DNA from: an uncultured archaeon
GTDB lineage: Archaea > Asgardarchaeota > Lokiarchaeia > Sigyniarchaeales > SOKP01
Direction: 5' to 3'
DNA: 28,374 nt
Assembly (NCBI GenBank): GCA_964493715.1
Contig: CAZBPC010000038.1
Coordinates: 1-28,374, forward strand
Of this stretch, positions 4,945 to 28,078 are shown piece after piece. The notes under the pieces were generated by a model. The model saw nothing but the letters and a program-made list of their open reading frames with translations, searched no databases and was not told the DNA's origin. Numbering within the stretch: position 1 is the first letter of the stretch; every line of letters begins with the position of its first letter. The translations under genes and the position numbers were made by a program.

Positions 4945-5370
4945 TTAGAATCGAAATATCTGTAATTTGTTTCTTGAATCTACAACTCCCATTAATAAGC
5001 TATTTAACACGTGAAGATCGGTAAAATTAAAAGAGCTATTCTTAGCAACGATACAATTTTCCAATTTAAAGTTCTCTCCAATTTTTACATTCTCATAAAT
5101 TATAGTATTTGATATTTCAACGTAATCGGCAATTTCTGAATTAGCACCAATGTATACATTCGGTCCTATAAGAACATCATCTCCTATCTTAACGTTGTCT
5201 TCTAAATAGACGGGTTCAATAAAAGTTGGGTAATCTCCAATATAGTTATCCACCCGATTCCTTAATTTAGCGAAGAAGGTTCCCATTAATTCTTGAATGT
5301 TTGATAATTCGATTTTTTTAGGGTTTACTATATTTTCTTCAATCTTGGTCAGTTCTTCCTTCATATTCAA
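4945..5370 (-). CDS. Stand-alone left-handed beta-helix (hexapeptide repeat) protein, similar to the C-terminal domain of NDP-sugar pyrophosphorylases
   Basis: Hexapeptide repeats PVYLEDNVKIGDDVLIGPNVYIGANSEI...NTIIYENVKIG. No N-terminal nucleotidyltransferase domain. Confidence 0.8.
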   Translation of the reverse strand: MNMKEELTKIEENIVNPKKIELSNIQELMGTFFAKLRNRVDNYIGDYPTFIEPVYLEDNVKIGDDVLIGPNVYIGANSEIADYVEISNTIIYENVKIGENFKLENCIVAKNSSFNFTDLHVLNSLLMGVVDSRNKLQIFRF

Positions 5371-5399
5371 CCACCGTTTTATTATATTACTTTTAATCT

Positions 5400-6125
5400 T
5401 TAAAAACCCAATAATTCCATTAATTTATCCATGTTCTCCCCAGTTTTTGCACTGGTTGTAATAACCTCTATTTCCGGGTTAAAATTTTTAGCGTCAGCAA
5501 TCATTTTCTCAACATTCGTTCCCAAACGTTCTTTTAGATCGATCTTATTTATAACCGCGATATCTGACATTTTAAAAAGCATTGGATGTTTTTCAATCAC
5601 CCATTCACCTTCTGTGATAGAAACTACGGTTATCCTTTTATCAGTTCCTAAAATAAACTCCGAGGGACATATTAAATTTCCTACATTTTCAATGAAGATT
5701 ATATCATAATTCTTCAAATCCTTGTTTTTAATTATTTGGTGTATGTGATAAGCATTTAGTGCGCATTCTCTACCCGTGTTGATCTGAATCGTATCAACAT
5801 TATGCTTTCCTATACGATCGGCATCTATTCGAGTAGTAATATCTCCACAAATGACCAAAATCCGATATTTTGGAGTTAACTTTTCAGCTATCTTTTCTAA
5901 TAGAGCAGTTTTTCCAGCTCCTATAGCCCCAACGATATCAAAAGATTTGATGTTATTTTCTAAAAAATTTTGATGAACTTTATCAGCTAATAAATTGTTA
6001 TCTTTTTTAACTGCTTTTTTAGTCTCAATTACTTCGTCTCTTATATCATCTCGAGCTAAATTGGTACTTTCGACTTCTTTAATTCTTGAGATTTCCCTTT
6101 CTTCTTTATCTGACATGAAGAACAC
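5400..6125 (-). CDS. hypB: Hydrogenase nickel-incorporation GTPase HypB
   Basis: P-loop GAIGAGKT, GD...DADRI, QINTGREC, IENVGNLICP, SITEG, INKID and SAKTG. The true start may be the internal ATG (MSDKEE). Confidence 0.92.
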   Translation of the reverse strand: MFFMSDKEEREISRIKEVESTNLARDDIRDEVIETKKAVKKDNNLLADKVHQNFLENNIKSFDIVGAIGAGKTALLEKIAEKLTPKYRILVICGDITTRIDADRIGKHNVDTIQINTGRECALNAYHIHQIIKNKDLKNYDIIFIENVGNLICPSEFILGTDKRITVVSITEGEWVIEKHPMLFKMSDIAVINKIDLKERLGTNVEKMIADAKNFNPEIEVITTSAKTGENMDKLMELLGF

Positions 6126-6205
6126 GTATTTGATTTTATTCTATTAATATTTGAAGGAATTTCAATTTTGCGATTTAGGGGAATTTCCATAATAACGCGA
6201 GTCTC

Positions 6206-7126
6206 TTACTTTGAATATTTTAATGTGATATAATTAGCAATTAGAACAAAGGAACCTCCTATAATAGTGAATATAGAAAGATTTTTTAAAAAAATGGCAG
6301 TATTAATTGTTGCCATAACAGGTTCAAAATACGATAAAATTATTATATTTCCTCCTTTATCTTTTTTCACTCCGACGTTATATAATGTAAATGCTAATGC
6401 AGTGGGAATAAGCCCTAGCAATAAAATGTAAATAAAATCCAAAGTTGTTATTCTAAATAAATCTGAAATACTTAATGGTAAAAATGGAATAAATAAGAAT
6501 AATGTTGACCATAATGTTAAAAAAGCATCAAAATTACCTTTCGTATTCAGTGATTGAATTTCATTTCTAATTTTATAAATTTTTTTTTTGGATAAAATCA
6601 TTACACCAAGGAAGAAGCCTGAAAAAAGTCCAATAACTAATCCCAATATTAAAACATGACCTGTCCAAAATTCCATTATAATAGATATCCCCACGATTGC
6701 TAAAATAAAACTAATGAAGTTAATTTTTGAAACTACCTCTTCTTTCGTTAATACTAAAAAGACTAACAGAAAAATTCCACTAGTATATAATAAAAAAGCT
6801 GCAAAAGCGTAACCAGTGAGTGTTATATTCCAAAAGTAAAGAAACACTACTAATGGGTTAGTTATTGCTATTATTATTAAATTTTTCCAGTGCATCTTGA
6901 AACACTGTTTAAAGAAAGCAATGGAAAAAGATCTTGTTATTATCATGAATAAAATTAGAAAACCCGCACCAAAAATTCCTCTGAACAAGACTATTGAGTA
7001 AATTGGATATCCACTTAGTAAAGAAATAAATATCCCCACATTTCCCATAAAGATTCCTGATAAAAACATACTTATTTTGGAAACAATGGGATTGAAACGA
7101 GCATTATCTAATTCCTCTATGGTCAT
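6206..7126 (-). CDS. DMT/EamA family transporter
   Basis: About 10 hydrophobic helices in two repeats, with LFRG, LLYT...F, LGLIPTALAFTLYNVG and YFEPV motifs. Confidence 0.88.
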   Translation of the reverse strand: MTIEELDNARFNPIVSKISMFLSGIFMGNVGIFISLLSGYPIYSIVLFRGIFGAGFLILFMIITRSFSIAFFKQCFKMHWKNLIIIAITNPLVVFLYFWNITLTGYAFAAFLLYTSGIFLLVFLVLTKEEVVSKINFISFILAIVGISIIMEFWTGHVLILGLVIGLFSGFFLGVMILSKKKIYKIRNEIQSLNTKGNFDAFLTLWSTLFLFIPFLPLSISDLFRITTLDFIYILLLGLIPTALAFTLYNVGVKKDKGGNIIILSYFEPVMATINTAIFLKNLSIFTIIGGSFVLIANYITLKYSK

Positions 7127-7289
7127 TGAATTGTAGAAGGAATCATGGTTTTAATTCTATTGGAATTGAATATTTCATAATCAATAGGCATATGATAAGT
7201 TGTCATCGATATGAATAAGAAATTTTTAGCAACAAAAGAAGAAATAGTATCTGGTATTTATTTAATAAATGATCTTGGAATTTAATAGA

Positions 7290-8567
7290 TCAATCTACTT
7301 TAGCACCACAAATAGGACATGCTCCTCTATTTCTGACCGTTGCCCCACAAATTTGACATAGTTTTATCGTTTTTTTCTTAGGAGGTCTGAGTGATGTAAT
7401 TGAAATTGGCTCTTTTGATGATTGTGGAATTTCATTACTATTTAAAGTTGTTTTAATTTCAATCTCATGACCGAAATAACCCCCTATCTTAACTTTTTTT
7501 ATAATTACTGGTTCTGTTGATTCTGTTGAGTATTCTGTTTCCTGTTGAGTAATAGGATTATTAAAGCCTTCAAATTCCTCCACATCTTCCACGATTTCAT
7601 TTTCTAATTCAAGTACCTCATCTTCAAATTCTAGTTCTTCAAATACTTCCTCATTATCTTCTTGAAAGATTAACTCTACGAATTCCTCATCTAATTTTAG
7701 GAGTGTATCACATTTAATACATCTAAATATGTGCTTGAATCCAATATTATTTGTAATAGAGTATTTTGCTGCACAACATAAATGATATTTTGCGTCACAA
7801 TTATAGCATTTATGAATTTCATCAGAATGTGCTTCACATATTGGACATAATTCTTGATTGCAAATGGTACATAATTCTTCATCTTCAGGATCTAGTGTTA
7901 TTAGATCCACTGCTAATTTTTCATAAAAAAGTTTGTCTTCATCAAGAAATTGATCATCTTCTTCAGGAAGGATGACAGAAAATTCTGTTTTATTTTGCAA
8001 AAGAGAGTTAAGGATATCTGGTAATAGTTTTGGATCGTTACAATAAAATACTCCACCTTGCGTTTCAGAAGTCATTACTTTAAGTTTAACATCATCAGTG
8101 AAAAATTTAGCATCTCCTACCCGAATAATATCAATAAAAGTGTCAAAAAATTTCGCTTTTAGTAGTAAATCATATAATGCGTGATGATATTCTTCGGGTA
8201 GTCCACTGGGGGTGTCAGAAAACACAATGACACGATAATTCTTACGCTTTTCTTTACTTTTGGTAAAAATATATGCTAGTGCTTCAAATAAACCATTTTC
8301 TAAGAAACTCGTATCATTTTCTCTTGACTCCCACTTGTCGTTAATAACTTTAGTAATTAATTCGGTATCAGGTTGATCATAAATCGTAATTAAGTTTTCC
8401 TTTTTTTGAAACATGATGAGTCCATATGTGCTTACACTGTGAAATTTTTCTTTTTCTTTTTCAAATCCAGTTATACTCTTCAATAAATTCTTTTTCTTTA
8501 TGAAATCTTTTGATAAATCAAGATAAAAGATAAATTCTTCAGAGTTCACAGATAATTGTTTAAACAT
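7290..8567 (-). CDS. vWA domain + RING/PHD-like zinc finger + C-terminal zinc ribbon protein (paralog A)
   Basis: N-terminal beta/alpha vWA pattern (FIFYLDLS, YGLIMF, YRVIVFSD, IDIIRVG, ETQGGVFY). Cys/His cluster CTIC-x4-CPIC-x9-CYNC-x4-HLCC-x17-CIKC, then an acidic linker and C-terminal CQICG...CPICG. Confidence 0.75.
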   Translation of the reverse strand: MFKQLSVNSEEFIFYLDLSKDFIKKKNLLKSITGFEKEKEKFHSVSTYGLIMFQKKENLITIYDQPDTELITKVINDKWESRENDTSFLENGLFEALAYIFTKSKEKRKNYRVIVFSDTPSGLPEEYHHALYDLLLKAKFFDTFIDIIRVGDAKFFTDDVKLKVMTSETQGGVFYCNDPKLLPDILNSLLQNKTEFSVILPEEDDQFLDEDKLFYEKLAVDLITLDPEDEELCTICNQELCPICEAHSDEIHKCYNCDAKYHLCCAAKYSITNNIGFKHIFRCIKCDTLLKLDEEFVELIFQEDNEEVFEELEFEDEVLELENEIVEDVEEFEGFNNPITQQETEYSTESTEPVIIKKVKIGGYFGHEIEIKTTLNSNEIPQSSKEPISITSLRPPKKKTIKLCQICGATVRNRGACPICGAKVD

Positions 8568-8723
8568 GAGAGCATCAAGAAAAAACCAAGAATTCTATTA
8601 ATTTAATATTAAATCATTCAGAATTTAACTACTAATGAAACTAGTTTTATTTAAAAATATCTTTTACCAAGATATATAATTTTATTTCAGAAATTAAATT
8701 TTTAATTTAATAGATAAAATTAT

Positions 8724-10091
8724 TTATAACTTAGTGCCACAATATGGACAAAATACATGATCCTTTTCATTTAACTGTTTTCCACAATTTGGGCAAATAA
8801 AAAAAGGAGATGCTTTTCTTTCAGAATTAGGGTTCCAGATCTTAGTTTGAGAAGAATCTTCCGGTTCCTTACTTTCCTCATTCGAGAATGGAGTATTAGA
8901 GATTGAAGTTCGTTCTACCCTAGATACTCTTTCATAGACAAGATTGCCCCCCTCTCTTCTTACTTTATACATTTTGCCAAAAAACCCACCAATGTGAATT
9001 ATTTTATCTCCTGAATTGGTTCCAAATGCTTGGTTTTCTTGAACGTTATTATAAAACTCATTTTCCGTTTCTTCAATCTCATCTACTTCATATTCCATTT
9101 CATCATAACTATCATCTTCATTCACATAACCTTCTTCTTTATACTCAAAATTATCAATGTAATCTTCAATAGATGCGATTTCAGGATTTCCTGATTGTAC
9201 AATCTCATCTTGATCGATTTGCAAGAGAACATCACATTTTGGACAACGAAAAATATGAGGAATACCAATATTATGATCGATCGTATAATTTGTAACGCAA
9301 CATTTATGAAAAGGATTTCCACAATCCGGGCACATTAGTGGAATGTCGTTTAAATCTGCACAAACAGGACATGCTTCATCATCACAAATTTGGCATTTAA
9401 TTTCTGTTTTATCTCGGGGGGAAGGGATTAGGTTTTTTGCTAGTCGAGAATAAAAATCATAGTCTTCTTTTTTGATCGAAATTTTCGGGGATTGGTTTGC
9501 ATAAATGCTCACATATTGTTTCATCTTAATAAGCTTTTCCATAGTTTTAAAAAAATCTCGCTTATCATTGATATAAAAGATACTTCCTTTAGTATCACTT
9601 GCGAGAACATTCAATTTAACATCATCTTTAAAAAATCGAGATTCAACCTGTGAAATTCGGATAATGTCAATGTAAGTCGGAAAATTCTTTATTTTTGATA
9701 CTAAATTGAACAAAACATCCGTATAATCTTCAGATAAATCACTTGGAGTATCTGTTATAATAATAATACGATAAGTTTTGGATTTCTTACGGATTTTTTC
9801 TGTTAAGAAAGAGAATACATAGAAAAGACCATTCTCGAAAAATGATTGATTCTTTGGTCTTGATTTCCAATTCTCTTCTATTGCATTAATAATTATATTT
9901 GAATCTTTCTTATCCGTAATAAAAATCGGATTTCCTTCTTCTTGAAAGATTAATAATCCGTAGTGACCCTTCAAATTTACTTTATTTTTTTCCGTGATGT
10001 AATGTTTTATTGTTTTAATTATATCTTTCTTCTTCAGGATCTCCTTGGTTAAATCTAAATAAATGAATACATCTTCATAAGATGAGATCAT
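8724..10091 (-). CDS. vWA domain + RING/PHD-like zinc finger + C-terminal zinc ribbon protein (paralog B)
   Basis: Collinear with 7290-8567: VFIYLDLT, YGLLIF, SFFENGLF, YRIIIITDTPS, IDIIRIS, FFKDDVKL. Finger CQIC-x4-CPVC-x9-CPDC-x4-HKCC-x17-CPKC; C-terminal CPNCG...CPYCG. Confidence 0.75.
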   Translation of the reverse strand: MISSYEDVFIYLDLTKEILKKKDIIKTIKHYITEKNKVNLKGHYGLLIFQEEGNPIFITDKKDSNIIINAIEENWKSRPKNQSFFENGLFYVFSFLTEKIRKKSKTYRIIIITDTPSDLSEDYTDVLFNLVSKIKNFPTYIDIIRISQVESRFFKDDVKLNVLASDTKGSIFYINDKRDFFKTMEKLIKMKQYVSIYANQSPKISIKKEDYDFYSRLAKNLIPSPRDKTEIKCQICDDEACPVCADLNDIPLMCPDCGNPFHKCCVTNYTIDHNIGIPHIFRCPKCDVLLQIDQDEIVQSGNPEIASIEDYIDNFEYKEEGYVNEDDSYDEMEYEVDEIEETENEFYNNVQENQAFGTNSGDKIIHIGGFFGKMYKVRREGGNLVYERVSRVERTSISNTPFSNEESKEPEDSSQTKIWNPNSERKASPFFICPNCGKQLNEKDHVFCPYCGTKL

Positions 10092-10243
10092 TACCTTTAC
10101 ACCCTTCTTACCGTTCTTTAGTTAAAGATGATTATTCATAAAATATTAGTTATCTATCTAAATGAAAACAATAAATATTTATTTTACTATGAATTAAAAA
10201 TGAAAAGAGAGCCGAAGAAATCACAAATATTAGGTAGTTTAAG

Positions 10244-12175
10244 ATGGAAAACTTTTTTGAAATGTTAAACCTTTCTAAAAATGCCATTCAAATATATTTA
10301 AAGTGTTTTGGGAAATATTCAATTTCAAAGATGGAATTGAATATTATTTTACCAAATTTATCACTTGAGGAGGTTTCAAACGCATTAAGCGAACTTATAG
10401 ATATTGGAATGATAATACCAATTTATCCAACAGATCCTAAAATTCTTGTTCATTATTTGGCAATTCCTCCTTTCGGAGCTGTGAGCAACTACTACGAAAA
10501 TATAAATGAAAATGTTGAAAATATCAAAACACAGATCCAGCTCATTGTAGGTAAAACTTTAGAAAAAATATTCAAAGATAACCAATTAATTGAAATAGAT
10601 ACTGCTTTTAAAGCTATAAAAGATCTAAGAAAAGATATTGACGAAGATTCGACAATTCAAAAGCAAGATGTAGAAGATATTGTGGCAGGAATGGAGAATC
10701 TGAGGGTTTTAAGCGATGCCTTTGAAAGTTTACACCATAATATAAAAGGCGTAACTCAATCTGAATTTACAAACTTAATAAAAATTATACCTACAATTGA
10801 AAATGAAATAAAAGAAAAAATTAATTCTTTAGAAATCAAAAAAAACAAAGAAGAATTAATAGAAATCGTTAGCACTGTGTTTAAAATGAACTTTGATACA
10901 ATGGTGGAAGAATTTACAATCGATTTACACGAGAAGATTAAGAAGGAATTTGATAATACCTTAGAGTCTATGAATACCATTATTAACTCTATGTTTCAAT
11001 TTAGGAATGATTTCAAAATGCTTTTATTAAATATGATGACTAATTTTGAGGTTAAAATAAATGAAATTTTTGAGATTGTGAAAAATAAAAAAGCTCAGTT
11101 GAAGCCTCAAATGGAGAGTTTTAGAGATCTCATAACTATCAAAATTAATGAAATAGTGCAAAACTCAATAAATTCAATTATAAAATTAAATGAACCTATC
11201 AATTCAGTAATGGATAGTTATTTAAAAATCATATCCACCTCTGAAAAAACACAAATTGATAAAATTTATCCAGTTTTTAGCTTAGCTAAAGTGAGTGAAG
11301 AATTCTCAAATTTTCTTGTTAATACAAAACAAAATCTAATAATCATCGTACCTAACCTTGAATCACTTATTTTACCCGAACACTTGAAAGAAGTATCGAG
11401 TTCTAGAAAAATAAAGATTATATCTTCGGAGGCACATACTAATAGTATTGTGAAGAAATTTGTTGAATTATCGAATGTAGATTATCGAATGTTAAAAAAT
11501 GAAACAATAATTATATTAAAAGGAGATAATGACCACGTGCTGCTTGGTGTTATCCAAGGAGATTCCTCTGATCCATTGAATAACTTTGTTGGAGTCTCTA
11601 GTAATTATACTCCTTTCGTTAAGATGTTAGACACATTGATAAATACATTATTAGAAATTGCCGTGAAGGATTCATTTCAAGTGCCAAAATCCATTGGTGT
11701 TGAAGGAGTGAACACAGATGTTCGTAGACAGATGAAAATTACCAATGAGCTTGAATCTAAAGCAAAGATCCTCGAAGAAAACAAACCAATAACTCCTACT
11801 CCGATTAAAACGGAAGTAAAAAAGACAATTGAAAAAATAGAACCTCCAAAAGAAATACCAAAGGCTTCAGCTCCTCCTACTCAAGCCGATCAAAAATCTA
11901 GTGAAATACCTAAACCTGAAGATCAATCTAGTATTATTATTAATAAGGCATTTATTGATCTAATTCAAAAAATGGGATCACTTAAAGGAAAAGAATTTAG
12001 TGAAGAATTACAAACCATAGCTAATCTGATACTAGAAAAAAAAGGATTTTCTGTAACACTCCATAAAATTAGAAGTACCATTAATCAATTCAAACTTAGC
12101 GAAGAGTATCTCAATGAGCTGGACAGGAAACAAGTTGTTACAAGTATTGAAGACTGGAAATCGCACTTGTTTTGA
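10244..12175 (+). CDS. TrmB-like protein: N-terminal winged HTH, long coiled-coil/helical region, PLD-like (TrmB effector-type) domain, Pro-rich linker, C-terminal helical domain
   Basis: N-terminus LNLSKNAIQIYL...LSLEEVSNALSELIDIGMI...YLAIPP resembles the TrmB wHTH. About 250 aa of heptad-rich helix follows. TKQNLIIIVP...IKIISS...YRML...IIILKGDNDHVLLG resembles the PLD-fold TrmB C-domain without HKD. Confidence 0.55.
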   Translation: MENFFEMLNLSKNAIQIYLKCFGKYSISKMELNIILPNLSLEEVSNALSELIDIGMIIPIYPTDPKILVHYLAIPPFGAVSNYYENINENVENIKTQIQLIVGKTLEKIFKDNQLIEIDTAFKAIKDLRKDIDEDSTIQKQDVEDIVAGMENLRVLSDAFESLHHNIKGVTQSEFTNLIKIIPTIENEIKEKINSLEIKKNKEELIEIVSTVFKMNFDTMVEEFTIDLHEKIKKEFDNTLESMNTIINSMFQFRNDFKMLLLNMMTNFEVKINEIFEIVKNKKAQLKPQMESFRDLITIKINEIVQNSINSIIKLNEPINSVMDSYLKIISTSEKTQIDKIYPVFSLAKVSEEFSNFLVNTKQNLIIIVPNLESLILPEHLKEVSSSRKIKIISSEAHTNSIVKKFVELSNVDYRMLKNETIIILKGDNDHVLLGVIQGDSSDPLNNFVGVSSNYTPFVKMLDTLINTLLEIAVKDSFQVPKSIGVEGVNTDVRRQMKITNELESKAKILEENKPITPTPIKTEVKKTIEKIEPPKEIPKASAPPTQADQKSSEIPKPEDQSSIIINKAFIDLIQKMGSLKGKEFSEELQTIANLILEKKGFSVTLHKIRSTINQFKLSEEYLNELDRKQVVTSIEDWKSHLF

Positions 12176-13124: not shown

Positions 13125-13586
13125 ATGCGAGATAAACGATTTGTAGTAGTACATCGTGGTGGATCACTCATTAAAGACCATCATCATCAAATAATTAGAT
13201 GGGCAAGGGAATGTTCAGAACATGTATTACCGCTTATCGATCAGAATATTGATAAGCGGCTAATTAATGCACTTTTTATTGCTAAAGAATGGGAAAAAGA
13301 AAATGTAACTGTAGGTGAAGCAAGAACTGCCTCTTTAGGTGCAATAGCAGTAGCAAATGAATCTTCAAATCCAATTATAACAGCAGTAGCGCGTTCTATT
13401 GGACATGCTGTAGCAACTGCTCATATGGCTGACCATTCAATAGGAGCTGCTGAATATGCACTTAAAGCGGTGAAATTTTCAGGTAAATCAATTGAAGAAG
13501 AAAGAAAATGGCAAGACAAAAAATTGACTTTAGATATTTCGGAACTTATATTAACAGCAAGGCAGAAAAAGAAACTTAAGATATAA
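13125..13586 (+). CDS. Putative immunity protein, Imm5-like helical family
   Basis: WARECSEHVL, ARSIGHAVATAHMADHSIGAAEYALKA and EERKWQ match the widespread bacterial Imm5-like 'putative immunity protein' pattern. Confidence 0.75.
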   Translation: MRDKRFVVVHRGGSLIKDHHHQIIRWARECSEHVLPLIDQNIDKRLINALFIAKEWEKENVTVGEARTASLGAIAVANESSNPIITAVARSIGHAVATAHMADHSIGAAEYALKAVKFSGKSIEEERKWQDKKLTLDISELILTARQKKKLKI

Positions 13587-13751: not shown

Positions 13752-14558
13752 ATGAAGAATTGTCAAGAATGTGGCGAATCAGTGAGTGAAGATCAAAGAT
13801 TTTGTGAAAAATGCGGAGCAGAATTGATACATGAAGCAGAAAAAATTAGCTTAACTACTCCTACAACTCAAGCACCTACTCCAGCACCTATACAAAAGGG
13901 GGGGTTATTTGATTTGAGCCGAAATTATTATTTGATTAAAGAAAATGCTTGGGATTTAGGATTTGGTGAAATTTACGATGAGAAAGGAACAACTATCGGA
14001 TTAATGCATCGCATTCTGTTTAGTATTCGGAGACGTGTTGAATTACAGGAGAATGATGGCACTGTAGTTGCAACGATCCATAGCAAAATAGTCAGTGCCA
14101 GAGGAGCTCAAGACCTAAAGGACCCAATTGGTGTCCCTATTGCTCGAATTAAGAGAAAAATACTCACATTTTTTAAGCAAAAATTCTTTTTAGAAGAACC
14201 TGAGACAAAAATTCGTTGGTATGAGGCTGAAGGTGATTTTTTTGGTTGGAGTTTTAGAATTTTTGAGAGTAATACTCATAAGCTCATCGCAGAAATAGAA
14301 AAAGCAGATAAATGGCGAGATATTTTTCTGGGTGGCATTTTCGACTATGCTGATCGCTATGCATTAAGGATATTTGATAATGAAACTGATCGTAGAATTC
14401 TTGTAGGTTTCGTTTTATCTATAGATAATGTTTTGCATGATAACCAAGGAGGTATTGGACCCATGATTGGAGGTGTAAGAGGTCCAATGCTAGGTAGAAT
14501 ACCAGGAAGATTTCCAGGTCCCGCTGGAAGACGCCCAGGGACTCGTCGTCCATGGTAA
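13752..14558 (+). CDS. Zinc-ribbon + LURP-one/scramblase (Tubby-C-like) domain protein with Gly/Pro/Arg-rich tail
   Basis: N-terminal CQECG...FCEKCG and a Pro/Thr linker. Repeated beta-hairpins (IYDEKGTTIG, LQENDGTVVATI, LKDPIGVPIARI, AEGDFFGWSFRI...IAEIEK) end in the D.Y.L.I...D..ILVGFVLSID helix typical of LURP-one/scramblase. Confidence 0.8.
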   Translation: MKNCQECGESVSEDQRFCEKCGAELIHEAEKISLTTPTTQAPTPAPIQKGGLFDLSRNYYLIKENAWDLGFGEIYDEKGTTIGLMHRILFSIRRRVELQENDGTVVATIHSKIVSARGAQDLKDPIGVPIARIKRKILTFFKQKFFLEEPETKIRWYEAEGDFFGWSFRIFESNTHKLIAEIEKADKWRDIFLGGIFDYADRYALRIFDNETDRRILVGFVLSIDNVLHDNQGGIGPMIGGVRGPMLGRIPGRFPGPAGRRPGTRRPW

Positions 14559-14847: not shown

Positions 14848-15786
14848 ATGACAGATATTTACGAAGAATTCAGGGTTTATAAATTAGAGGACTCAGGAGA
14901 ACGCAATAAATTAGGAATAAAACAAGAAGAACTTCAAAATATTTTAAATCCAGAAGCTGTTGTTATTATTGTGAGAGAAGATTTAAGAAGAATTTTCATA
15001 TGGAAGGGTTCAAAATCCTCTGTTAGAAAAAGATTTGTAAGTTCTCGAGTGGCCCAACAATTGCAAAAAGAACTTATTGATGATTCACGATATCATAGAT
15101 GTAAAATAGTTTCTATTGACCAAGGTGACGAACTTCACGAATTCTTAAATGCTTTTAGGTTAGAGTCGATGGAGGTCACTGAACGTTTACCAGATCTGCG
15201 CTATATTCGAAATATTGAGAGAGATAGGATAGAAGAAGCTGAAAAACTCATAAGTGAAAGTACTACATCCAAAAAAGAGAATGAAGTTTACATTTCTCCT
15301 GGATTAAGTGATACTGATAACACTATTGTAATGTCTTCGTTTTCTCGGGATGTACCCAAAATAAATAAAAACCCTGTCATGCAAACAACTGCCAAAAAAG
15401 AATTATTTTCTATTCAAGAGCAAGAAAAGATAAAAGGAAAAGTTCTTGAGAAAGAAATTCCTAGTGAATATGAAAGACAAAACTTAATTCTTGGTCATAC
15501 CTTATTTGGCGCTACCACCAAAACCTTTGAAGTGTTTGGAAAGGATGTTGTAGAGGTAGCATGGGAAAAAGTAACAAAGTTACCAAAAGACATGATTGAA
15601 TTAGATGATTATAAATTAAGAGTCTATTTAGATGACAAAAAAGGAATTGTTGAGGCTGTCGAAGTTTTAAAGAAAAAAGACTCGATGCAAAAACAAGAAA
15701 ATAAAGATAAACCTACATCTTCAAATTACAATTCTAAATCACAGGGAAGAAGGGAGTTACCAAAAATTCCTAGCAACAATAAATGA
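14848..15786 (+). CDS. Asgard-type gelsolin-domain protein (single gelsolin repeat plus a C-terminal domain, 1DGelX-like)
   Basis: LNPEAVVIIV...RRIFIWKGSKSSVRKRF...AQQL...IVSIDQGDELHEFL follows the gelsolin repeat consensus. GAGGAG Shine-Dalgarno upstream. Confidence 0.8.
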   Translation: MTDIYEEFRVYKLEDSGERNKLGIKQEELQNILNPEAVVIIVREDLRRIFIWKGSKSSVRKRFVSSRVAQQLQKELIDDSRYHRCKIVSIDQGDELHEFLNAFRLESMEVTERLPDLRYIRNIERDRIEEAEKLISESTTSKKENEVYISPGLSDTDNTIVMSSFSRDVPKINKNPVMQTTAKKELFSIQEQEKIKGKVLEKEIPSEYERQNLILGHTLFGATTKTFEVFGKDVVEVAWEKVTKLPKDMIELDDYKLRVYLDDKKGIVEAVEVLKKKDSMQKQENKDKPTSSNYNSKSQGRRELPKIPSNNK

Positions 15787-19932: not shown

Positions 19933-22329
19933 TCAAATTTCATCTAATTTAGCTGAGGATTTCGAAGTTTTTTCTTTAGTAACAAGTTTTTCGTATTCAC
20001 CAGGCTTAATCGGTCCTAATTCTTCTAGTTGTTCCTTAAATTCTGTTATTACTTGAGCATATCGTTCTCCTTCACCAGCAGAAATACTTGTAATTTTTAA
20101 ACGATTTTCATTAATACCGGCTTGTATCAGCATTTCTCTCATACTTTCATACCTCGCTTTTGCCTTAATAAATCCAGTATCATAGTGACAATCCTGTTCA
20201 TGGCAGCCCGCGATTAAGACTCCATCAGCTCCTCGGAGTAATGTTTCGAAAACTAATGATGGATTGAGCATGGCAGTACACATCACTCTAATAGATCTTA
20301 CATTAGAGGGATATGTTATTTTACTGGTTCCTGCTAAATCTGCGCCCATATATGAACACCAATTGCATAGAAATGCCACTATTAATGGATGCTCGCTCTT
20401 TCCTTGACTTAAAATTGCTTTTGTTTGGGCAGATATTTGTTCTTTCCTAAACCCAGGAATATATAATGCATCTTGAGGACACATAGCAGCACAGGCACCA
20501 CAACCTGTACAATTGGCTTGTGTGAGCGTGAGTTTTTCCTTACTGAGACTGATGGCATTAAAATTGCAAATATTTTCACACAATCTACAGAGATTGCACT
20601 TTTCTTCATCAAAATAAACGATGTGGGGATTTAATTCAACTTTTCCTCTTGATATTAGAGCAATGGCTTTTGCAGCAGCGCTTTCCGCATGTGCAATGCT
20701 ATTTGGAATGTCTTTTGGTCCCTGTATTACTCCTGCTAAGAAAATACCATTTACTGATGTTTCTGAAGGGTGCACTTTCAGGTGTTTTTCAAGGAGGAAT
20801 CCATTTTGATCCAACGAAATATTTAATTTCTGACTTAATTCTACCGTTCCTTCAGCAGGTTCAATACCCACAGCCAATACTACTAAATCAGATTTATTTT
20901 CAAATAATGCATCTTCAAATATATCTTCTCCCTTTATTATTAAATCATCTGACATATCACTTTTTACTATTGAAGCTATATTACTTTTAATGAATCGAAT
21001 ACCAAATGCTTCTCGTGCACGATTATAAAATTCTTCGCAATTTTTACCTACCGCTCTTATGTCATTAAAGTAAACATTAATCTCTGTGTTTGGATTCTCT
21101 TTTTTAATCAGAATTGCTTGCTTAATTGATGCATTGCAACATACTTGGCTGCAATATTCTCGTCCAATCGTTTTATTTCTAGAACCTACGCAAAGAATGA
21201 AAGAAACCTTTTTAGGGGGTAAACCGGTTGAAGGACGTACGACTTTACCTCTTGTAGGACCATCATTATTTTGTAACCGCTCCATTTGCATCGTAGTAAT
21301 CACGTCAGGATATTTTTGAAAATTCAATTCCCCCAGTAAACTTGGATCAAATGTTTTGAATCCTGTTGCGACTATAATTGATCCAACTTCGATGTTAATT
21401 TTTTGTGGAATCTGGTCAAAATCAATAGCGTCTCTATCACACGCGAGAGAACAAGCTTTACATCCTATACAATATTCTTCTAAAATATTTGGAAATAAAG
21501 GAATCGCTTGAGGATATGGAATATCTATTGCTTTCCTCGGAAAAAAAGTGTTTTCTATATCTATTGGACATACTTCTCGACAAATATCAATACAACCCAC
21601 GCAATTTTCTTCGTTAATAAATCTCGGTTTCTTTTTTATAGATGCTTTAAAGTTTCCAACGTATCCTTCAATAGATTCAAGTTCACTAAACGTTAGCAAT
21701 TCGATATTAGGATGATCTTTAATTTCAGACATTAACGGTCCAAGGATGCAAATGCTACAATCTAAAGTTGGAAAGGTTTTATCAAATAAGGCCATGTGAC
21801 CCCCGATAGTAGCGTCTCGTTCAAGTAAGTACACCTTATATCCCGCATCTGCAATAACCATTGCTGCTTTTATTCCAGCAATACCTCCTCCTATTATTAA
21901 AGTTGATTTGGTAACCGGAGCATATTGGACTTCTAATGGTTCCAGAAGTTTTACTTCTTCTATTGCCATATTAATTTGATCAATTGCCTTTTTTGTGGCG
22001 TGTTCTGGTTGATTTGGGTGTACCCAGGAATTTTGCTCTCTAATGTTAGCAAAAGATATTAAAAATTTATTTATACCTGCCTTTTCAATTGCTTTTTGAA
22101 ACAAAGATCCATGCAATTTGAATGAACATGCTGCGATAACCACTCTGTCAATTCCTTTTTCTTTAATTTCATCATTAATCTTGTTTACTCCAGTTTCTGA
22201 GCATAGATATTGATCCCCAATTACTTGAATTTCCGGATAATTCTTTCTATAATATTCTTCAACCTTTTTTGTATCTATCGTGCCAGATATATTTCTTCCA
22301 CAGTTACAGATGAATAACCCTACCTTCAT
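19933..22329 (-). CDS. hdrA: Heterodisulfide reductase subunit A-like flavoprotein fused to a C-terminal MvhD/FlpD [2Fe-2S] domain
   Basis: N-terminal CNCG/CS/ACS/NIREQ, FAD site IIGGGIAG, DKTFPTLDCSICIL, two 2x[4Fe-4S] ferredoxin blocks, CVGSR...YCSQVCC and GPKDIP. C-terminal FLCNWCSYMGAD...RVMCT...GCHEQDCHY is MvhD. Confidence 0.92.
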   Translation of the reverse strand: MKVGLFICNCGRNISGTIDTKKVEEYYRKNYPEIQVIGDQYLCSETGVNKINDEIKEKGIDRVVIAACSFKLHGSLFQKAIEKAGINKFLISFANIREQNSWVHPNQPEHATKKAIDQINMAIEEVKLLEPLEVQYAPVTKSTLIIGGGIAGIKAAMVIADAGYKVYLLERDATIGGHMALFDKTFPTLDCSICILGPLMSEIKDHPNIELLTFSELESIEGYVGNFKASIKKKPRFINEENCVGCIDICREVCPIDIENTFFPRKAIDIPYPQAIPLFPNILEEYCIGCKACSLACDRDAIDFDQIPQKINIEVGSIIVATGFKTFDPSLLGELNFQKYPDVITTMQMERLQNNDGPTRGKVVRPSTGLPPKKVSFILCVGSRNKTIGREYCSQVCCNASIKQAILIKKENPNTEINVYFNDIRAVGKNCEEFYNRAREAFGIRFIKSNIASIVKSDMSDDLIIKGEDIFEDALFENKSDLVVLAVGIEPAEGTVELSQKLNISLDQNGFLLEKHLKVHPSETSVNGIFLAGVIQGPKDIPNSIAHAESAAAKAIALISRGKVELNPHIVYFDEEKCNLCRLCENICNFNAISLSKEKLTLTQANCTGCGACAAMCPQDALYIPGFRKEQISAQTKAILSQGKSEHPLIVAFLCNWCSYMGADLAGTSKITYPSNVRSIRVMCTAMLNPSLVFETLLRGADGVLIAGCHEQDCHYDTGFIKAKARYESMREMLIQAGINENRLKITSISAGEGERYAQVITEFKEQLEELGPIKPGEYEKLVTKEKTSKSSAKLDEI

Positions 22330-22448
22330 AAACTTTTTCCTCTATTTCTGAAGATCTCTAATCCAATTATAGTAATTAGATGTTATTAATTATTCTTAAT
22401 AACCAATCATAGATAATATTAATTCTTACAAAAGAAATGGATTACTAA

Positions 22449-24467
22449 TTATTGGGAAATCGTAATAATTGCAGAATTAAATGAACCAGATAAGTGAGAT
22501 TTTTCTGGAGTTTGAGGGGTAAAAAGGTTAACATTCAAACTTCTATTGAATCCGAAAGGGGACCCTGAGTAAATTAATGCTACTCCTGGTTTTAGTTCAA
22601 CTTTTTCCTCTAAAGTGTAGTTAGATTCACCATATCTATTTGATACAGTAACTTCTTTATCAATTTGGAGGTTTAATCGTTTAATATCAAAAGGATGGAG
22701 AAATATTTTTTCAAACTGATTAACAAAATTCGGATATATTTGACCGAATTGTGAATGAATAAATTGGATGTGTGAAGGAGAAATAAGATAAAATTGATTA
22801 GAGTTCCTACAAAAGGTTTCCTCGTTTACAAAATCTTCAATTAAAAGATTTAAATCCAAATTTAATTTAGATGGTTGAGATAAAAAAGGAATTTCTTTAA
22901 ATGGAACATCATCCTCATCAAATAAAGTGTGGTATCCTTTTTCATCAATATCCTTTTTCATTTTTTTAGAAAGCATCGTGATGCTTTTTCGCATTATCAT
23001 ACTTTGACTTTCTTGAAAATCCAAATCATCTTGCCAACCAATTTTGTATGCTAATTTTTGAAAAAATTCATAATTTGTTAAACAATTTGGATAAGGACAT
23101 GGTCCACCTTCATTAATAGATACTCCTGGGATATAATAGGGAGTATACATGTCATCATTTTCAACTCCAAATTTAGCAGGGATAACAATATCTGCGTATT
23201 TTGTTGTTTGATTTAAAAACATGTCTATCACAACAACAAAGAGGTCCTCTCGACTGAGCGCACGCCTTAGTAGATTTTGATTTGGAATGGAACTTGCTGG
23301 GTTAAAATTATAAATAAAAATCATTTTATATTTAGGAGAATTCAAAGCCCATCCTAAATCTATCAACATTATTTTATTATTTCTTGGAATGCTTGGATTT
23401 TTAGTTATATATTGAACAATAGGGTCAATGAATACCTTGTTAAAATCACTTTGGGAATAAACTAAACCCGTTCCGGGTCTCCCAAAATTACCCAAAATTA
23501 CTTGTAGGAGAGCAATTAATTGTAAAGTTTCTCCGCCGTGATAATATTTTTGAATACCGTATCCTACATTAAAGATCGTTTCATGTTTATGTTGAATAAG
23601 TAAATCTATTACTTTATTCAAAATATTAAAATCCACCCCAATTTTTTGCACGGCTTTTGTTATATCAAGCTTCTTAATTTTTGAAAAGAAAATTTCAGGA
23701 TTTTCAAAATAGTTAGATATAAATCCAGGATCATAACCATTCTTTTTGATTATCTGATTTATAATTAATTTGGCAACAAGATATTCCGTACCAGGATCAG
23801 GTTGAATGAAAAATTGAGCTTCTTGCGCTAATTTATGATATCTTGAATCTATTACGATCAATATTGAGCCGTTTTTTATTGCGGTTTTAATTAATCTATA
23901 AGCGTGAATATTAGTTTCTGGTAGATTACTTCCCCATATCACAATAACTTTTGCGGCTTTACTTTTCAATTGAAAGGGATTGGTCGTAGAGTATGTACCT
24001 AATAATTTTTGAAGAGCATCACATCCTCCTTCGTTACAAATGCCCCCTGTAGTAATTGTCGCACCTAATTTATTAAAAAATCTTAATGGTGCTAATCTTG
24101 ATATGAGTCCATTATTTCCTGCACTAAATGCAGCCACAATTGATTCTGGACCGTATGATTGTTTTATTTCACCGAGTTTTTCTGCTATAATCGTTAGAGC
24201 TTCTTTTAATCCAATTGGATTAAATTCATTTTGCCCTTTTGCACCCACGTGTTTTAACGGTTTGATCAATCTTTCAGGATGATAAACAAATTTCTCTCGG
24301 TTATTGAGTTTTGGACATAAGAATCCTTGGGTAAATGGATGTATCCTTGAAGGGATAGTTCCTAAAAATTTTACTTTTTCAGCATTGTCATTCCATTTAG
24401 TATGGAATACGCAGGATCCATAGCAATCTTTTGAACAAGTTCCGAATCGTTTTATTGCATCATTCAA
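22449..24467 (-). CDS. Molybdopterin-dependent oxidoreductase (DMSO reductase superfamily, uncharacterised YoaE/YyaE-like clade)
   Basis: [4Fe-4S] motif CSKDCYGSC...LCPK, HPERLIKPL, putative Mo ligand GGICNEGG, IVIWGSN, NFNPASS, TTKYADIVIPA, and a C-terminal dinucleotide-binding domain. TTG start. Confidence 0.88.
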   Translation of the reverse strand: MNDAIKRFGTCSKDCYGSCVFHTKWNDNAEKVKFLGTIPSRIHPFTQGFLCPKLNNREKFVYHPERLIKPLKHVGAKGQNEFNPIGLKEALTIIAEKLGEIKQSYGPESIVAAFSAGNNGLISRLAPLRFFNKLGATITTGGICNEGGCDALQKLLGTYSTTNPFQLKSKAAKVIVIWGSNLPETNIHAYRLIKTAIKNGSILIVIDSRYHKLAQEAQFFIQPDPGTEYLVAKLIINQIIKKNGYDPGFISNYFENPEIFFSKIKKLDITKAVQKIGVDFNILNKVIDLLIQHKHETIFNVGYGIQKYYHGGETLQLIALLQVILGNFGRPGTGLVYSQSDFNKVFIDPIVQYITKNPSIPRNNKIMLIDLGWALNSPKYKMIFIYNFNPASSIPNQNLLRRALSREDLFVVVIDMFLNQTTKYADIVIPAKFGVENDDMYTPYYIPGVSINEGGPCPYPNCLTNYEFFQKLAYKIGWQDDLDFQESQSMIMRKSITMLSKKMKKDIDEKGYHTLFDEDDVPFKEIPFLSQPSKLNLDLNLLIEDFVNEETFCRNSNQFYLISPSHIQFIHSQFGQIYPNFVNQFEKIFLHPFDIKRLNLQIDKEVTVSNRYGESNYTLEEKVELKPGVALIYSGSPFGFNRSLNVNLFTPQTPEKSHLSGSFNSAIITISQ

Positions 24468-27550: not shown

Positions 27551-28078
27551 TTGACGAAAAAATTTGTCTTCAAGATTTTAATTGCTGGCAATGGGGGAGC
27601 AGGAAAAACAACACTACTCCGTAGATATGTAAACGGAGTCTTCAATGAATCTACGATCGAGACGGTAGGGGTTGATTTTTTCATCAAGGAGATTATGTTT
27701 GATGATTTAGAAGCAAATTGTTCATTACAGTTATGGGATTTAGGAGGTCAAGAACGTTTCAGGCATCTCCTTGAAAATTTCGTCATGGGGGCAAGAGCAG
27801 CACTCCTCTTATTTGACATGACACGCATGCCTGTAATAAATGAGATTATAGCATGGGTAAATCTTGTAAGGATGCACGATATGAATTTACCAATCATTCT
27901 AGTTGGGACTAAATCAGACTTAGAAGATTTAATTGCTGTAAATGATGAAATAGCGCTAAATATTAAACAAACCTTTCAGATGGTTGATTATATAAAAACA
28001 TCATCTAAATCAGGAATGAATGTTGATATAGCATTCAAATCAATTATAGAATTTTTAATGACTAAAAGTAAATATTAG
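27551..28078 (+). CDS. Rab-like small GTPase (Ras superfamily, Asgard type)
   Basis: FVFKILIAGNGGAGKT (G1), TVGVDF (G2), LQLWDLGGQERFR (G3), VGTKSD (G4), TSSK (G5). No C-terminal prenylation motif. Confidence 0.92.
   Translation: MTKKFVFKILIAGNGGAGKTTLLRRYVNGVFNESTIETVGVDFFIKEIMFDDLEANCSLQLWDLGGQERFRHLLENFVMGARAALLLFDMTRMPVINEIIAWVNLVRMHDMNLPIILVGTKSDLEDLIAVNDEIALNIKQTFQMVDYIKTSSKSGMNVDIAFKSIIEFLMTKSKY

Follow-up and report, generated by a model that had tools for sequence, protein, structure and literature searches.

Tandem paralogs joining a vWA domain to a RING-type finger in a Lokiarchaeial family are candidate cytosolic adaptors

Two neighbouring genes, here called A and B, of an uncultured Lokiarchaeial archaeon (order Sigyniarchaeales; assembly GCA_964493715.1, contig CAZBPC010000038.1) encode full-length paralogs with a single architecture: an N-terminal von Willebrand factor A (vWA) domain with a degenerate metal site, a cross-brace finger, an acidic linker, a beta-meander and a zinc ribbon. 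We analysed them within the whole 28,374-nucleotide stretch that carries them, referred to below as the window. The pair is a real and well-conserved feature, and both a p44-like vWA domain and a RING-type finger are supported by structural comparison of the modelled protein B. An earlier note on this DNA had gone further and read the pair as a candidate Asgard precursor of a eukaryotic vWA heterodimer, a reading that our results do not support. We lean instead, tentatively, towards reading A and B as RING-type adaptors of the cytosol, possibly acting in the manner of ubiquitin ligases (E3).

Two adjacent genes with one architecture

Both genes lie on the minus strand and are separated by a short spacer. 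Their positions in the window, and those of the domains of the two proteins, are as follows.

7290..8567, minus strand: gene A, 425 amino acids (aa), a paralog of B with the same architecture, from its open reading frame (ORF) and translation
8568..8723, minus strand: AT-rich spacer of 156 bp between B and A, seen in the sequence
8724..10091, minus strand: gene B, 455 aa; vWA domain, C4HC3 RING-variant finger, acidic linker, beta-meander, zinc ribbon
9507..10091, minus strand: vWA domain of B (residues 1-195) with a degenerate MIDAS, the adhesion site that depends on a metal ion (D13-L-T-K-E17, D114 kept), from an AlphaFold2 model and structural matching
9192..9479, minus strand: helix and cross-brace C4HC3 finger of B (residues 205-300; C233, C236, C254, C257, H262, C265, C283, C286)
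9012..9191, minus strand: Glu/Asp-rich linker of B (residues 301-360), predicted to be disordered, with a predicted local distance difference test score (pLDDT) below 50 for residues 322-359
8922..9011, minus strand: three-stranded beta-meander of B (residues 361-390; strands 363-367, 373-380 and 383-388) with GGFFG at 368-372
8727..8804, minus strand: C4 zinc ribbon of B (residues 430-455; C433/C436/C448/C451), Pfam Zn_ribbon_3 at E 6.7e-7 and 29 bits
7968..8567, minus strand: putative vWA domain of A (residues 1-200; D17-L-S-K-D21), from alignment to B
7668..7955, minus strand: C4HC3 finger of A (residues 205-300), ligand positions as in B
7443..7505, minus strand: beta-meander motif KKVKIGGYFG of A (residues 355-375; GGYFG at 362-366)
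7293..7370, minus strand: C4 zinc ribbon of A (residues 400-425; C404, C407, C417, C420)

A and B align end to end with 34% identity (BLASTP, E 3e-72), a similarity far above chance, and are full-length paralogs. ENGLF occurs in both proteins and HYITEKNKVNLKGHYGL in B, while LASDTKGSIFYIND of B has MTSETQGGVFYCND as its counterpart in A. The ORFs and the full-length alignment thus agree with what the earlier note had described, namely two neighbouring, co-oriented genes of common architecture, and all the motifs it quoted (DLSKD/DLTKE, ENGLF, GG(Y/F)FG, the Glu/Asp-rich linker and the terminal CxxC...CxxC) are found. Orthologs of B are 52-94% identical to it among the 120 matches listed of 617, and some are named “vWA domain-containing”, “RING finger protein” or “E3 ubiquitin-protein ligase” by NCBI, names that are assigned automatically and are not tests of function. 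A look for sequencing runs turned up 24 sources of DNA and none of RNA. We note that one ortholog of B (G147:C171:19264-20592, minus strand) contains a single in-frame TAA, and may be a pseudogene or reflect an assembly error.

The vWA domain of B matches p44/Ssl1 above other solved structures

Protein B was modelled alone with AlphaFold2 on a 102-row family alignment (A1), which is dominated by the clade of A- and B-type sequences (the A/B clade) and also includes the canonical and intermediate paralogs described below. The model has a mean pLDDT of 81.7 and exceeds 95 across residues 1-190. Compared with solved vWA domains it reaches a Z score of 21.2, with a root-mean-square deviation (rmsd) of 2.4 Å over 177 residues (p44); 103 chains match it at a Z of at least 8, and the top 50 listed are all vWA domains. 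By this model the N-terminal domain of B is a vWA fold, and the full-length alignment to B suggests the same fold for A.

Sequence models are silent on this point. No vWA family of Pfam (VWA, VWA_2 or VWA_3) matches A or B at E ≤ 1, a VWA_2 search of the window's own genome did not match contig C38, and neither Pfam nor NCBIfam yields a Ssl1 or Tfb4 match for either protein, the sole significant match being the zinc ribbon of B. The family can nevertheless be reached by chaining. An exhaustive phmmer search of B against 1.84 billion representatives returned 168 proteins at E ≤ 1e-3; because its weaker relatives, for example P0239 (6e-9), match VWA_2, VWA and Ssl1, the vWA assignment has support from sequence too, and 10 of the 102 aligned relatives match VWA_2 when scanned one by one with Pfam. 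The vWA identity that the earlier note had proposed is therefore borne out by structure and by sequence chaining, though Pfam is silent on the two proteins themselves.

The same holds for the degenerate MIDAS it had described, to which the column counts bear witness. The intact DxSxS...T...D signature is kept neither in A (D17-L-S-K-D) nor in B (D13-L-T-K-E). Within the A/B clade, positions 3 and 5 of the motif vary, D13 is retained in at least 90% of sequences and D114 is invariant; across the 102 rows of A1 the fifth position is D in 25, E in 20, K in 16 and S in 12. The canonical paralogs retain DxSxS (6/6, 5/6 and 5/6).

Two structural aligners rank p44/Ssl1 first. With the model of B, Foldseek places p44/Ssl1 at ranks 1-21 (E 1.3e-10 to 8e-8), in alignments that span 270-367 columns and reach the finger region; MERIT40 (E 1.2e-7), Tfb4, Rpn10 and p34 come next, between about 1e-7 and 7e-7, ahead of ANTXR1 (4e-6). 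VIA-align, which searched 48,161 representative chains without recourse to Foldseek, places p44 first (Z 20.1), then Ssl1 (19.5 and 19.1), ArnB (18.3) and Rpn10 (17.9), followed by a continuum down to Z 14.4 in which intracellular and extracellular vWA domains are intermixed. In a second use of VIA-align, in which the 997 best chains from Foldseek were re-scored, ranks 1-25 are filled by p44/Ssl1 (Z 18.5-21.2, rmsd 2.4-2.9 Å, 175-183 residues), and then come ArnB (18.4), Rpn10 (17.9), p34 (17.4-17.9), MERIT40 (17.3) and integrin I domains (17.0-17.2). For the modelled domain, p44/Ssl1 is the best solved match, with top Z scores of 20.1-21.2 at rmsd 2.4-2.7 Å in the two runs, and stands about 2-3 Z above the plateau, whereas Rpn10, p34 and MERIT40 are indistinguishable from generic vWA domains, being tied with integrin I. 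Of the resemblance to a p44/p34/Rpn10/MERIT40 group that the earlier note had suggested, the p44/Ssl1 part stands, ranked first by both aligners, and the Rpn10, p34 and MERIT40 part, which falls below ArnB, does not. Similarly, the expected placement above generic vWA domains is found for p44/Ssl1 and not for Tfb4, Rpn10 or MERIT40.

Profiles built from the family tell a narrower story. Searched against PDB sequences, the A1 profile finds Rpn10 (7.8e-10), p44 (3.1e-8) and MERIT40 (1.2e-5), with complement C2 and the anthrax receptor far behind at 0.03-0.05. When the profile is built only from the A/B clade (A2, 51 rows), no vWA protein is matched among PDB sequences at E ≤ 10, and the signal of A1 is therefore owed to its canonical and intermediate members; the idea that A- and B-type sequences as such show a link to Rpn10, p44 or MERIT40 was dropped on this ground. 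Searching PDB sequences with B alone by phmmer returns only weak hints of TRIM-type RING and PHD fingers (E 0.04-0.75). In the ESM Atlas, residues 1-195 of B score 0.89 against a eukaryotic Ssl1-like cluster and 0.88 against bacterial vWA clusters, all below 0.9 and to be taken as a lead only. Pfam detects no ubiquitin-interacting motif (UIM) or other ubiquitin-binding family in A or B at E ≤ 1.

The finger adopts a RING-type fold with PHD-type spacing

The finger follows the pattern C-x2-C...C-x2-C-x4-H-x2-C...C-x2-C, that is, C4HC3. Across the 102 aligned members, no substitution occurs at C233, C236, C254, C257 or H262, whereas C265, C283 and C286 are kept in at least 90%; all eight ligands are invariant in clade B, the branch of B-type genes in the tree below. 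An extra C241-x2-C244 pair and C264 are conserved in clades A and B, and H279 is present in 32/39 clade-B sequences. We infer that C241, C244, C264 and H279 might form a third zinc site.

When B residues 196-455 were folded separately, the finger was modelled with a pLDDT of 92-97. Nearly all of its top 50 matches in VIA-align are RING-type E3 domains, with C4HC3 variants in the lead. The best is FANCL (Z 6.8, 62 of 67 residues, 2.6 Å, 23% identity), and further matches are Listerin (5.9), Deltex (5.7), Nse1 (5.6), APC11 (5.4), PHF7 (5.2) and Slx1 (4.9), where rows less than 1 Z apart count as tied. The p44 RING scores 4.9 and 4.1-4.5, under FANCL. Foldseek returns no match for the finger model at E ≤ 1e-3, and its top rows are RINGs at E of at least 0.038. 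The few PHD rows within the top 50 of VIA-align are PHF7, solved in complex with an E2 (ubiquitin-conjugating) enzyme, and VIN3 (4.1). At the level of sequence both finger types surface: scanned member by member, Pfam matches Prok-RING_1 in 27/102 and PHD in 16/102, and the A1 profile matches the PHD fingers of MTF2 (3.8e-4) and of Jade-1, DPF3 and BRPF1 (about 0.01) among PDB sequences.

A hydrophobic residue at C1+2, a proline after C7 and a basic “linchpin” after C8 are the positions with which RING E3s touch an E2. The first two are present in all 39 clade-B sequences. In the model, the finger is a RING fold with PHD-type ligand spacing, and it is a candidate only for a catalytic role. The RING/PHD-like finger of the earlier note is thus recovered, since the top rows of both VIA-align and Foldseek are RING-type.

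Beyond the finger, the beta-meander of B is modelled with a pLDDT of 76-87, and F371 and G372 are invariant in clade B, as are G362, G363 and G366 in clade A. The ribbon of B has a pLDDT of 84-92, its cysteines being invariant in 76 rows. Several proteins with both a vWA domain and a beta-sandwich align as far as residues 367-386 of the model, which suggests that the meander packs beside the vWA domain.

The duplication is young and confined to one family

We surveyed 199 genomes of the phylum, some of them incomplete, and called A/B-type genes at E ≤ 1e-8. Such genes are present in all 38 other genomes of the window's family and in 2/3 of its sister family, and in none of 158 genomes from the other 25 families, so that the family is not the Asgard-wide feature that the earlier note had implied. 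In 29/32 genomes with both copies the two genes share a strand, with B directly upstream of A, and in the remaining three they are at contig ends; the pair is thus conserved in other genomes. A single copy was found in eight genomes, six of which belong to the window's family (genera g4 and g6), and one further genome (86% complete) has a canonical paralog only.

A quick IQ-TREE phylogeny of 54 rows, rooted on the canonical class and supported by the Shimodaira–Hasegawa-like approximate likelihood ratio test (SH-aLRT) with no bootstrap, branches in the order canonical, class III, class IV and then the A/B group. Clades A and B each receive 100% SH-aLRT. The single-copy genes of g6 fall inside clade A, and those of g4 group weakly (84) with clade B. 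The single-copy genes of the sister family diverge below the A/B split (SH-aLRT 90-95), and this tree consequently dates the A/B duplication within one taxonomic family, as a family-level event retained in 6/8 sampled genera and not an ancient Asgard one. Because B–A adjacency holds in 29/32 genomes and each clade is fully supported, we conclude that both copies are maintained by selection.

Two claims of the earlier note fall with this result. Its “old retained duplication” postdates the divergence of the sister family in the tree, and its “precursor of a eukaryotic heterodimer” would have to be a pair that duplicated inside one family and ranges over one order. A duplication within one family therefore cannot be the p44/p34 duplication.

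Canonical paralogs are closer to p44 in length and domain order than A and B

The genomes of this order carry about 4-5 vWA-RING paralogs each. Two canonical ones from the genome of the window are given here.

contig C5, L009:829-2010, minus strand: canonical paralog C5, 394 aa; vWA domain with intact DxSxS MIDAS and two C-terminal RING/PHD-type fingers
contig C15, L008:835-2010, minus strand: canonical paralog C15, 392 aa; vWA domain with intact DxSxS MIDAS and two C-terminal RING/PHD-type fingers

With 41.7 and 43.6 bits, C5 and C15 exceed the cut-off of the Pfam Ssl1 model (PF04056; 27 bits), which no protein of 14 control genomes does. They score higher still on VWA_2 (70 and 66 bits), and C5 also reaches 56 bits on the bacterial BatA model. 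The best PDB sequence matches of C5 are S. pombe Rpn10 (3.8e-6), plant Rpn10, the bacterial vWA protein 4rck, p44 (3.4e-4) and BatB. At about 395 aa, the canonical paralogs have the length of human p44 chains, and are closer to p44 in length and domain order than A and B are.

Matches to the Ssl1 model, at about two per genome, occur in 37/38 genomes of the window's family, in 3/3 of the sister family and in 1/158 others, where the match is weak. On these sequence searches, the vWA-RING superfamily is found in one order only. One variant within it deserves mention. Relatives of about 1,050-1,120 aa (P0208, P0214, P0217, P0225, P0229, P0231; G178:C74:67376-68545) have the vWA-finger-ribbon arrangement at their N-terminus and a long extra C-terminal region. 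Next to C5, on the opposite strand, lies a divergently oriented 406-aa ORF (L009:2193-3413, plus strand) in whose central part motifs like G1 and G3 of small GTPases can be made out by eye.

Genomic neighbourhood

Pfam was run on 24 of the 26 ORFs of at least 80 aa in the window, and neighbourhoods were compared over 21 loci. No MoxR/AAA+ ATPase is present among the 24 scanned ORFs or among the conserved neighbours in the 21 loci, in agreement with the remark of the earlier note that none is nearby. The scanned ORFs likewise contain no ubiquitin-system, helicase, kinase, phosphatase or FHA gene, and among the neighbours conserved across the 21 loci there is no E1, E2, Ub, DUB, helicase, repair, kinase or MoxR gene. 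The other features of the window are listed below.

10244..12175, plus strand: fam1, 643 aa, divergently transcribed neighbour of B, probably with an N-terminal TrmB-type winged helix-turn-helix (wHTH); beside the vWA gene(s) in 18/21 loci
13125-13586, plus strand: Imm-5-like putative immunity protein, 153 aa (PF21805, 124 bits); position not conserved in other loci
13752-14558, plus strand: Zn-ribbon and LURP-one-related (LOR) protein, part of the conserved block by the vWA pair
14848-15786, plus strand: gelsolin-repeat protein, part of the conserved block by the vWA pair
19933-24467, minus strand: fused HdrA-like flavoprotein with ferredoxin and MvhD/FlpD (798 aa) and, next to it, a molybdopterin oxidoreductase (672 aa), from the domain scan
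27551-28078, plus strand: small GTPase of Ras/Roc/Arf type, 175 aa (Ras, 127 bits)

fam1 has no Pfam or NCBIfam match. Its Atlas cluster (own-cluster score 0.97) is restricted to Promethearchaeota, and 25% of the members carry a TrmB wHTH. In the three g4 loci, two genes lie between fam1 and the vWA gene, and the arrangement is missing in both sister-family loci, its synteny being limited to one family. After fam1 come a CDP-alcohol phosphatidyltransferase, the Zn-ribbon+LOR protein and the gelsolin-repeat protein, and the side downstream of A is variable. The synteny may merely be inherited gene order, and a functional link of fam1 to A and B may be entertained as a lead only.

Outside the window the genome has two UQ_con E2s (contigs C35 and C14), five ubiquitin (Ub)-like genes, a ubiquitin-activating enzyme (E1) and a JAB deubiquitinase (DUB), as well as an XPD-like helicase on a contig other than that of A and B. 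One cluster (contig C35, L056 ~5158-11626) joins three Ub-like genes, a wHTH regulator, a ThiF-type E1, a UQ_con E2 and JAB, and is followed by P0273, a 385-aa multi-pass membrane protein with a C-terminal C-x2-C...C-x2-C-x4-H...C-x2-C finger. P0273 aligns to B with its ligands in register, at a BLASTP E of 0.014 that is too weak to use. By its sequence it is a possible membrane-anchored RING-like E3.

Proposed role and rival readings

Our preferred reading, held tentatively, is that A and B are cytosolic RING-type adaptors in which a docking vWA domain is joined to a variant RING, and that they are possibly E3-like. By analogy with p44, p34 and Rpn10, the vWA domain with its decayed metal site would most likely serve as a metal-independent docking surface for a client or partner. 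The variant-RING finger would recruit a second protein, most plausibly the charged E2 of the cell's own ubiquitin-like system; alternatively, its partner could be another subunit, the finger then acting as a scaffold in the way the p44 RING does with p34. The extra cysteine pair of the finger may hold a third zinc, and the chain would then continue through the disordered acidic linker into the small beta-meander and the ribbon. E3-like action is considered possible because E1, E2, Ub-like and JAB genes are found at other places in the genome.

Several observations weigh against an E3-like adaptor. In 28/39 clade-B sequences the final ligand is followed by Asp, and the basic linchpin is thus missing. 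The finger has its ligands spaced as in PHD and C1 domains (C-x2-C-x4-H-x2-C), and the fold scores of the finger are modest (best Z 6.8, with nothing from Foldseek at E ≤ 1e-3). The E1, E2, Ub and DUB genes lie on contigs C35, C14, C58 and C25, unlinked to A and B, and the ubiquitin cluster may have a RING-like candidate of its own in P0273. In solved p34–p44 complexes, judging from the entry titles, the p44 RING is a non-catalytic interaction module. Finally, the adaptor role is drawn from the model of B, from which E3 activity and binding are predictions.

Under a rival reading, A and B would form a non-catalytic scaffold heterodimer, the finger of one resting on the vWA domain of the other as in p44–p34, that regulates another enzyme or complex and transfers no ubiquitin. 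We regard this as a somewhat unlikely alternative. It accords with p44/Ssl1 being the best structural match, with the adjacent and co-oriented copies in 29/32 genomes, with the linchpin missing from clade B, with solved p34–p44 complexes (5o85, 5nus, 5obz, by entry titles) that join a RING-like domain to a vWA domain, and with the presence of an XPD-like helicase in the genome. However, the six single-copy genomes of the same family (g4, g6) imply that a heterodimer is not obligatory, the helicase is on another contig and no helicase or repair gene is ever a conserved neighbour in the 21 loci, and the finger lies nearer to FANCL, Listerin and Nse1 (Z 5.6-6.8) than to the p44 RING (4.9), in a comparison where less than 1 Z is a tie. 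A switch of the ArnB kind, for example a phosphorylation-dependent one that would act, perhaps with fam1, on transcription or on a process of the cell surface or cytoskeleton, is unlikely. ArnB is the top structural match outside p44 (Z 18.3-18.4), with an alignment that extends to model residue 367, and it is bound by ArnA through a zinc ribbon (PMC12852372); fam1, with its TrmB-containing cluster, accompanies the vWA gene(s) in 18/21 loci, and the conserved block includes the gelsolin-repeat and Zn-ribbon+LOR genes. Yet A and B have neither the split eight-stranded beta-sandwich nor the C-terminal helical bundle of ArnB, the model showing a three-stranded meander instead; none of the scanned ORFs of the window codes for a kinase, phosphatase or FHA protein, and the fam1 synteny, confined to one family, may be inherited gene order.

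The PHD-type spacing raises the further question of whether the finger could read histone or other tails, with the ribbon binding nucleic acid. The spacing is exactly that of PHD fingers, and the PHD matches in Pfam (16/102) and among PDB sequences (MTF2 at 3.8e-4; Jade-1, DPF3 and BRPF1 at about 0.01) point the same way; but classical reader PHDs are nearly missing from the top 50 structure rows, which are filled by RING E3s, and Pfam detects no DNA-binding domain in A or B, so that we consider a chromatin or nucleic-acid reader very improbable. True descent of TFIIH p44 (alone or together with p34), of Rpn10 or of MERIT40 from such proteins, the proposal of the earlier note, seems to us equally improbable. 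The lead of p44/Ssl1 by about 2-3 Z and the shared order of vWA domain and then zinc fingers would fit such descent, as would canonical paralogs of about 395 aa, like human p44, that pass the Ssl1 cut-off (41.7 and 43.6 against 27 bits, with 0/14 controls). Against it, the A/B duplication took place inside one family, the superfamily is found in one order only (A/B-type genes in 0/158 other genomes; Ssl1-model matches in 1/158, weak), VWA_2 (70 bits) and BatA (56 bits) outscore Ssl1 (40 bits) on the canonical paralogs, the A/B-only profile has no PDB vWA match, and the Atlas scores are a near-tie (0.89 and 0.88). Reading A and B as RING-type adaptors, with a vWA domain that would dock and a finger that may engage an E2, hence remains our tentative preference.

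Implications

In sum, one Asgard order has expanded vWA-RING proteins, and the vWA domain of the modelled member resembles p44 above other solved structures. To our knowledge, very few archaeal E3-like adaptors are known; the same genomes have E1, E2, Ub-like and JAB genes, which makes the vWA-RING proteins concrete and easily expressed candidates for such adaptors. The tandem pair is a young, lineage-specific duplication and accordingly ought not to be quoted as ancestral to the p44/p34 heterodimer.

A separate and more doubtful proposition concerns the superfamily as a whole. The Lokiarchaeial vWA-RING proteins, comprising the canonical two-finger paralogs and the diverged A/B offshoot, could conceivably be the closest living prokaryotic relatives of p44/Ssl1. 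If this were true, both the TFIIH core made of vWA domain and zinc fingers and the pairing of such paralogs would trace to Asgard RING-type adaptors and would not be a eukaryotic invention. Alternatively, under the same relationship, a p44-like gene may have moved between early eukaryotes and this archaeal order.

Comparison with known systems

Proteins in which a vWA domain is joined to zinc fingers are central to TFIIH (p44/p34), the proteasome lid (Rpn10) and BRCA1-A/BRISC (MERIT40). All component domains of A and B are known, and combinations of vWA and RING exist in p44 and WAV3. Burroughs, Iyer and Aravind are said to have described, in 2011, prokaryotic RINGs that are sometimes fused to vWA domains. 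Our literature search, conducted mostly on listings, found no paper on a vWA-RING family among work on Asgard or Lokiarchaeial vWA-RING, Ssl1 or TFIIH-type proteins. For Asgard TFIIH, the available part of PMC9258230 offers only a RAD25-like family, and the nearest published system, as far as the accessible text of PMC5654768 goes, is the archaeal cascade of E1, E2 and small RING protein of Caldiarchaeum.

Similar to A and B, p44 (GTF2H2/Ssl1) places one or more C-terminal cross-brace fingers after its vWA domain, and that domain is the best match of B. Identity is only 13-15%, however, and A and B have no Pfam Ssl1 match. Their finger is C4HC3, whereas p44 has a C-terminal C4 finger and a C4C4 RING-like domain that binds p34. 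A and B further add the acidic linker, beta-meander and zinc ribbon, have no linked TFIIH-type partners and are confined to one archaeal order. As a pair they recall p44 and p34/Tfb4, which are also two paralogous vWA and zinc-finger proteins (p34 vWA, Z 17.1-17.9), but the A/B duplication is recent and within one family, and single-copy genomes exist. Rpn10 (PSMD4) and MERIT40 (BABAM1) are likewise cytosolic docking vWA proteins and are matched by the A1 profile, which includes the canonical paralogs; in Rpn10 one or more UIMs follow the vWA domain, Pfam detects no UIM or other ubiquitin-binding family in A or B, and B scores Z 17.3-17.9 against the two, tied with integrin I, while the A/B-only profile finds no match.

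With the variant RING E3s (FANCL, Listerin/Ltn1, Nse1, Slx1 and PHF7), the finger of A and B shares the ligand pattern, the cross-brace fold, the hydrophobic residue at C1+2 and the proline after C7. It differs in its extra C241, C244 and C264, in having no basic residue after the last ligand, and in its modest scores. The WAV3-type RING-vWA E3 ligases of plants and fungi, likened here by description, unite RING and vWA in one cytosolic protein, and their RING stands at the N-terminus. They are named as structural relatives of archaeal vWA proteins in PMC12852372. ArnB–ArnA of Sulfolobus, a system taken here together with the Sec23/24 core, includes the best match other than p44 and shows an archaeal cytosolic vWA protein working with a zinc ribbon. 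According to PMC12852372, ArnB has an intact MIDAS of its own, its beta-sandwich is split and eight-stranded and its helical bundle is phosphorylated, with the ribbon on a separate protein, whereas A and B carry a RING-type finger.

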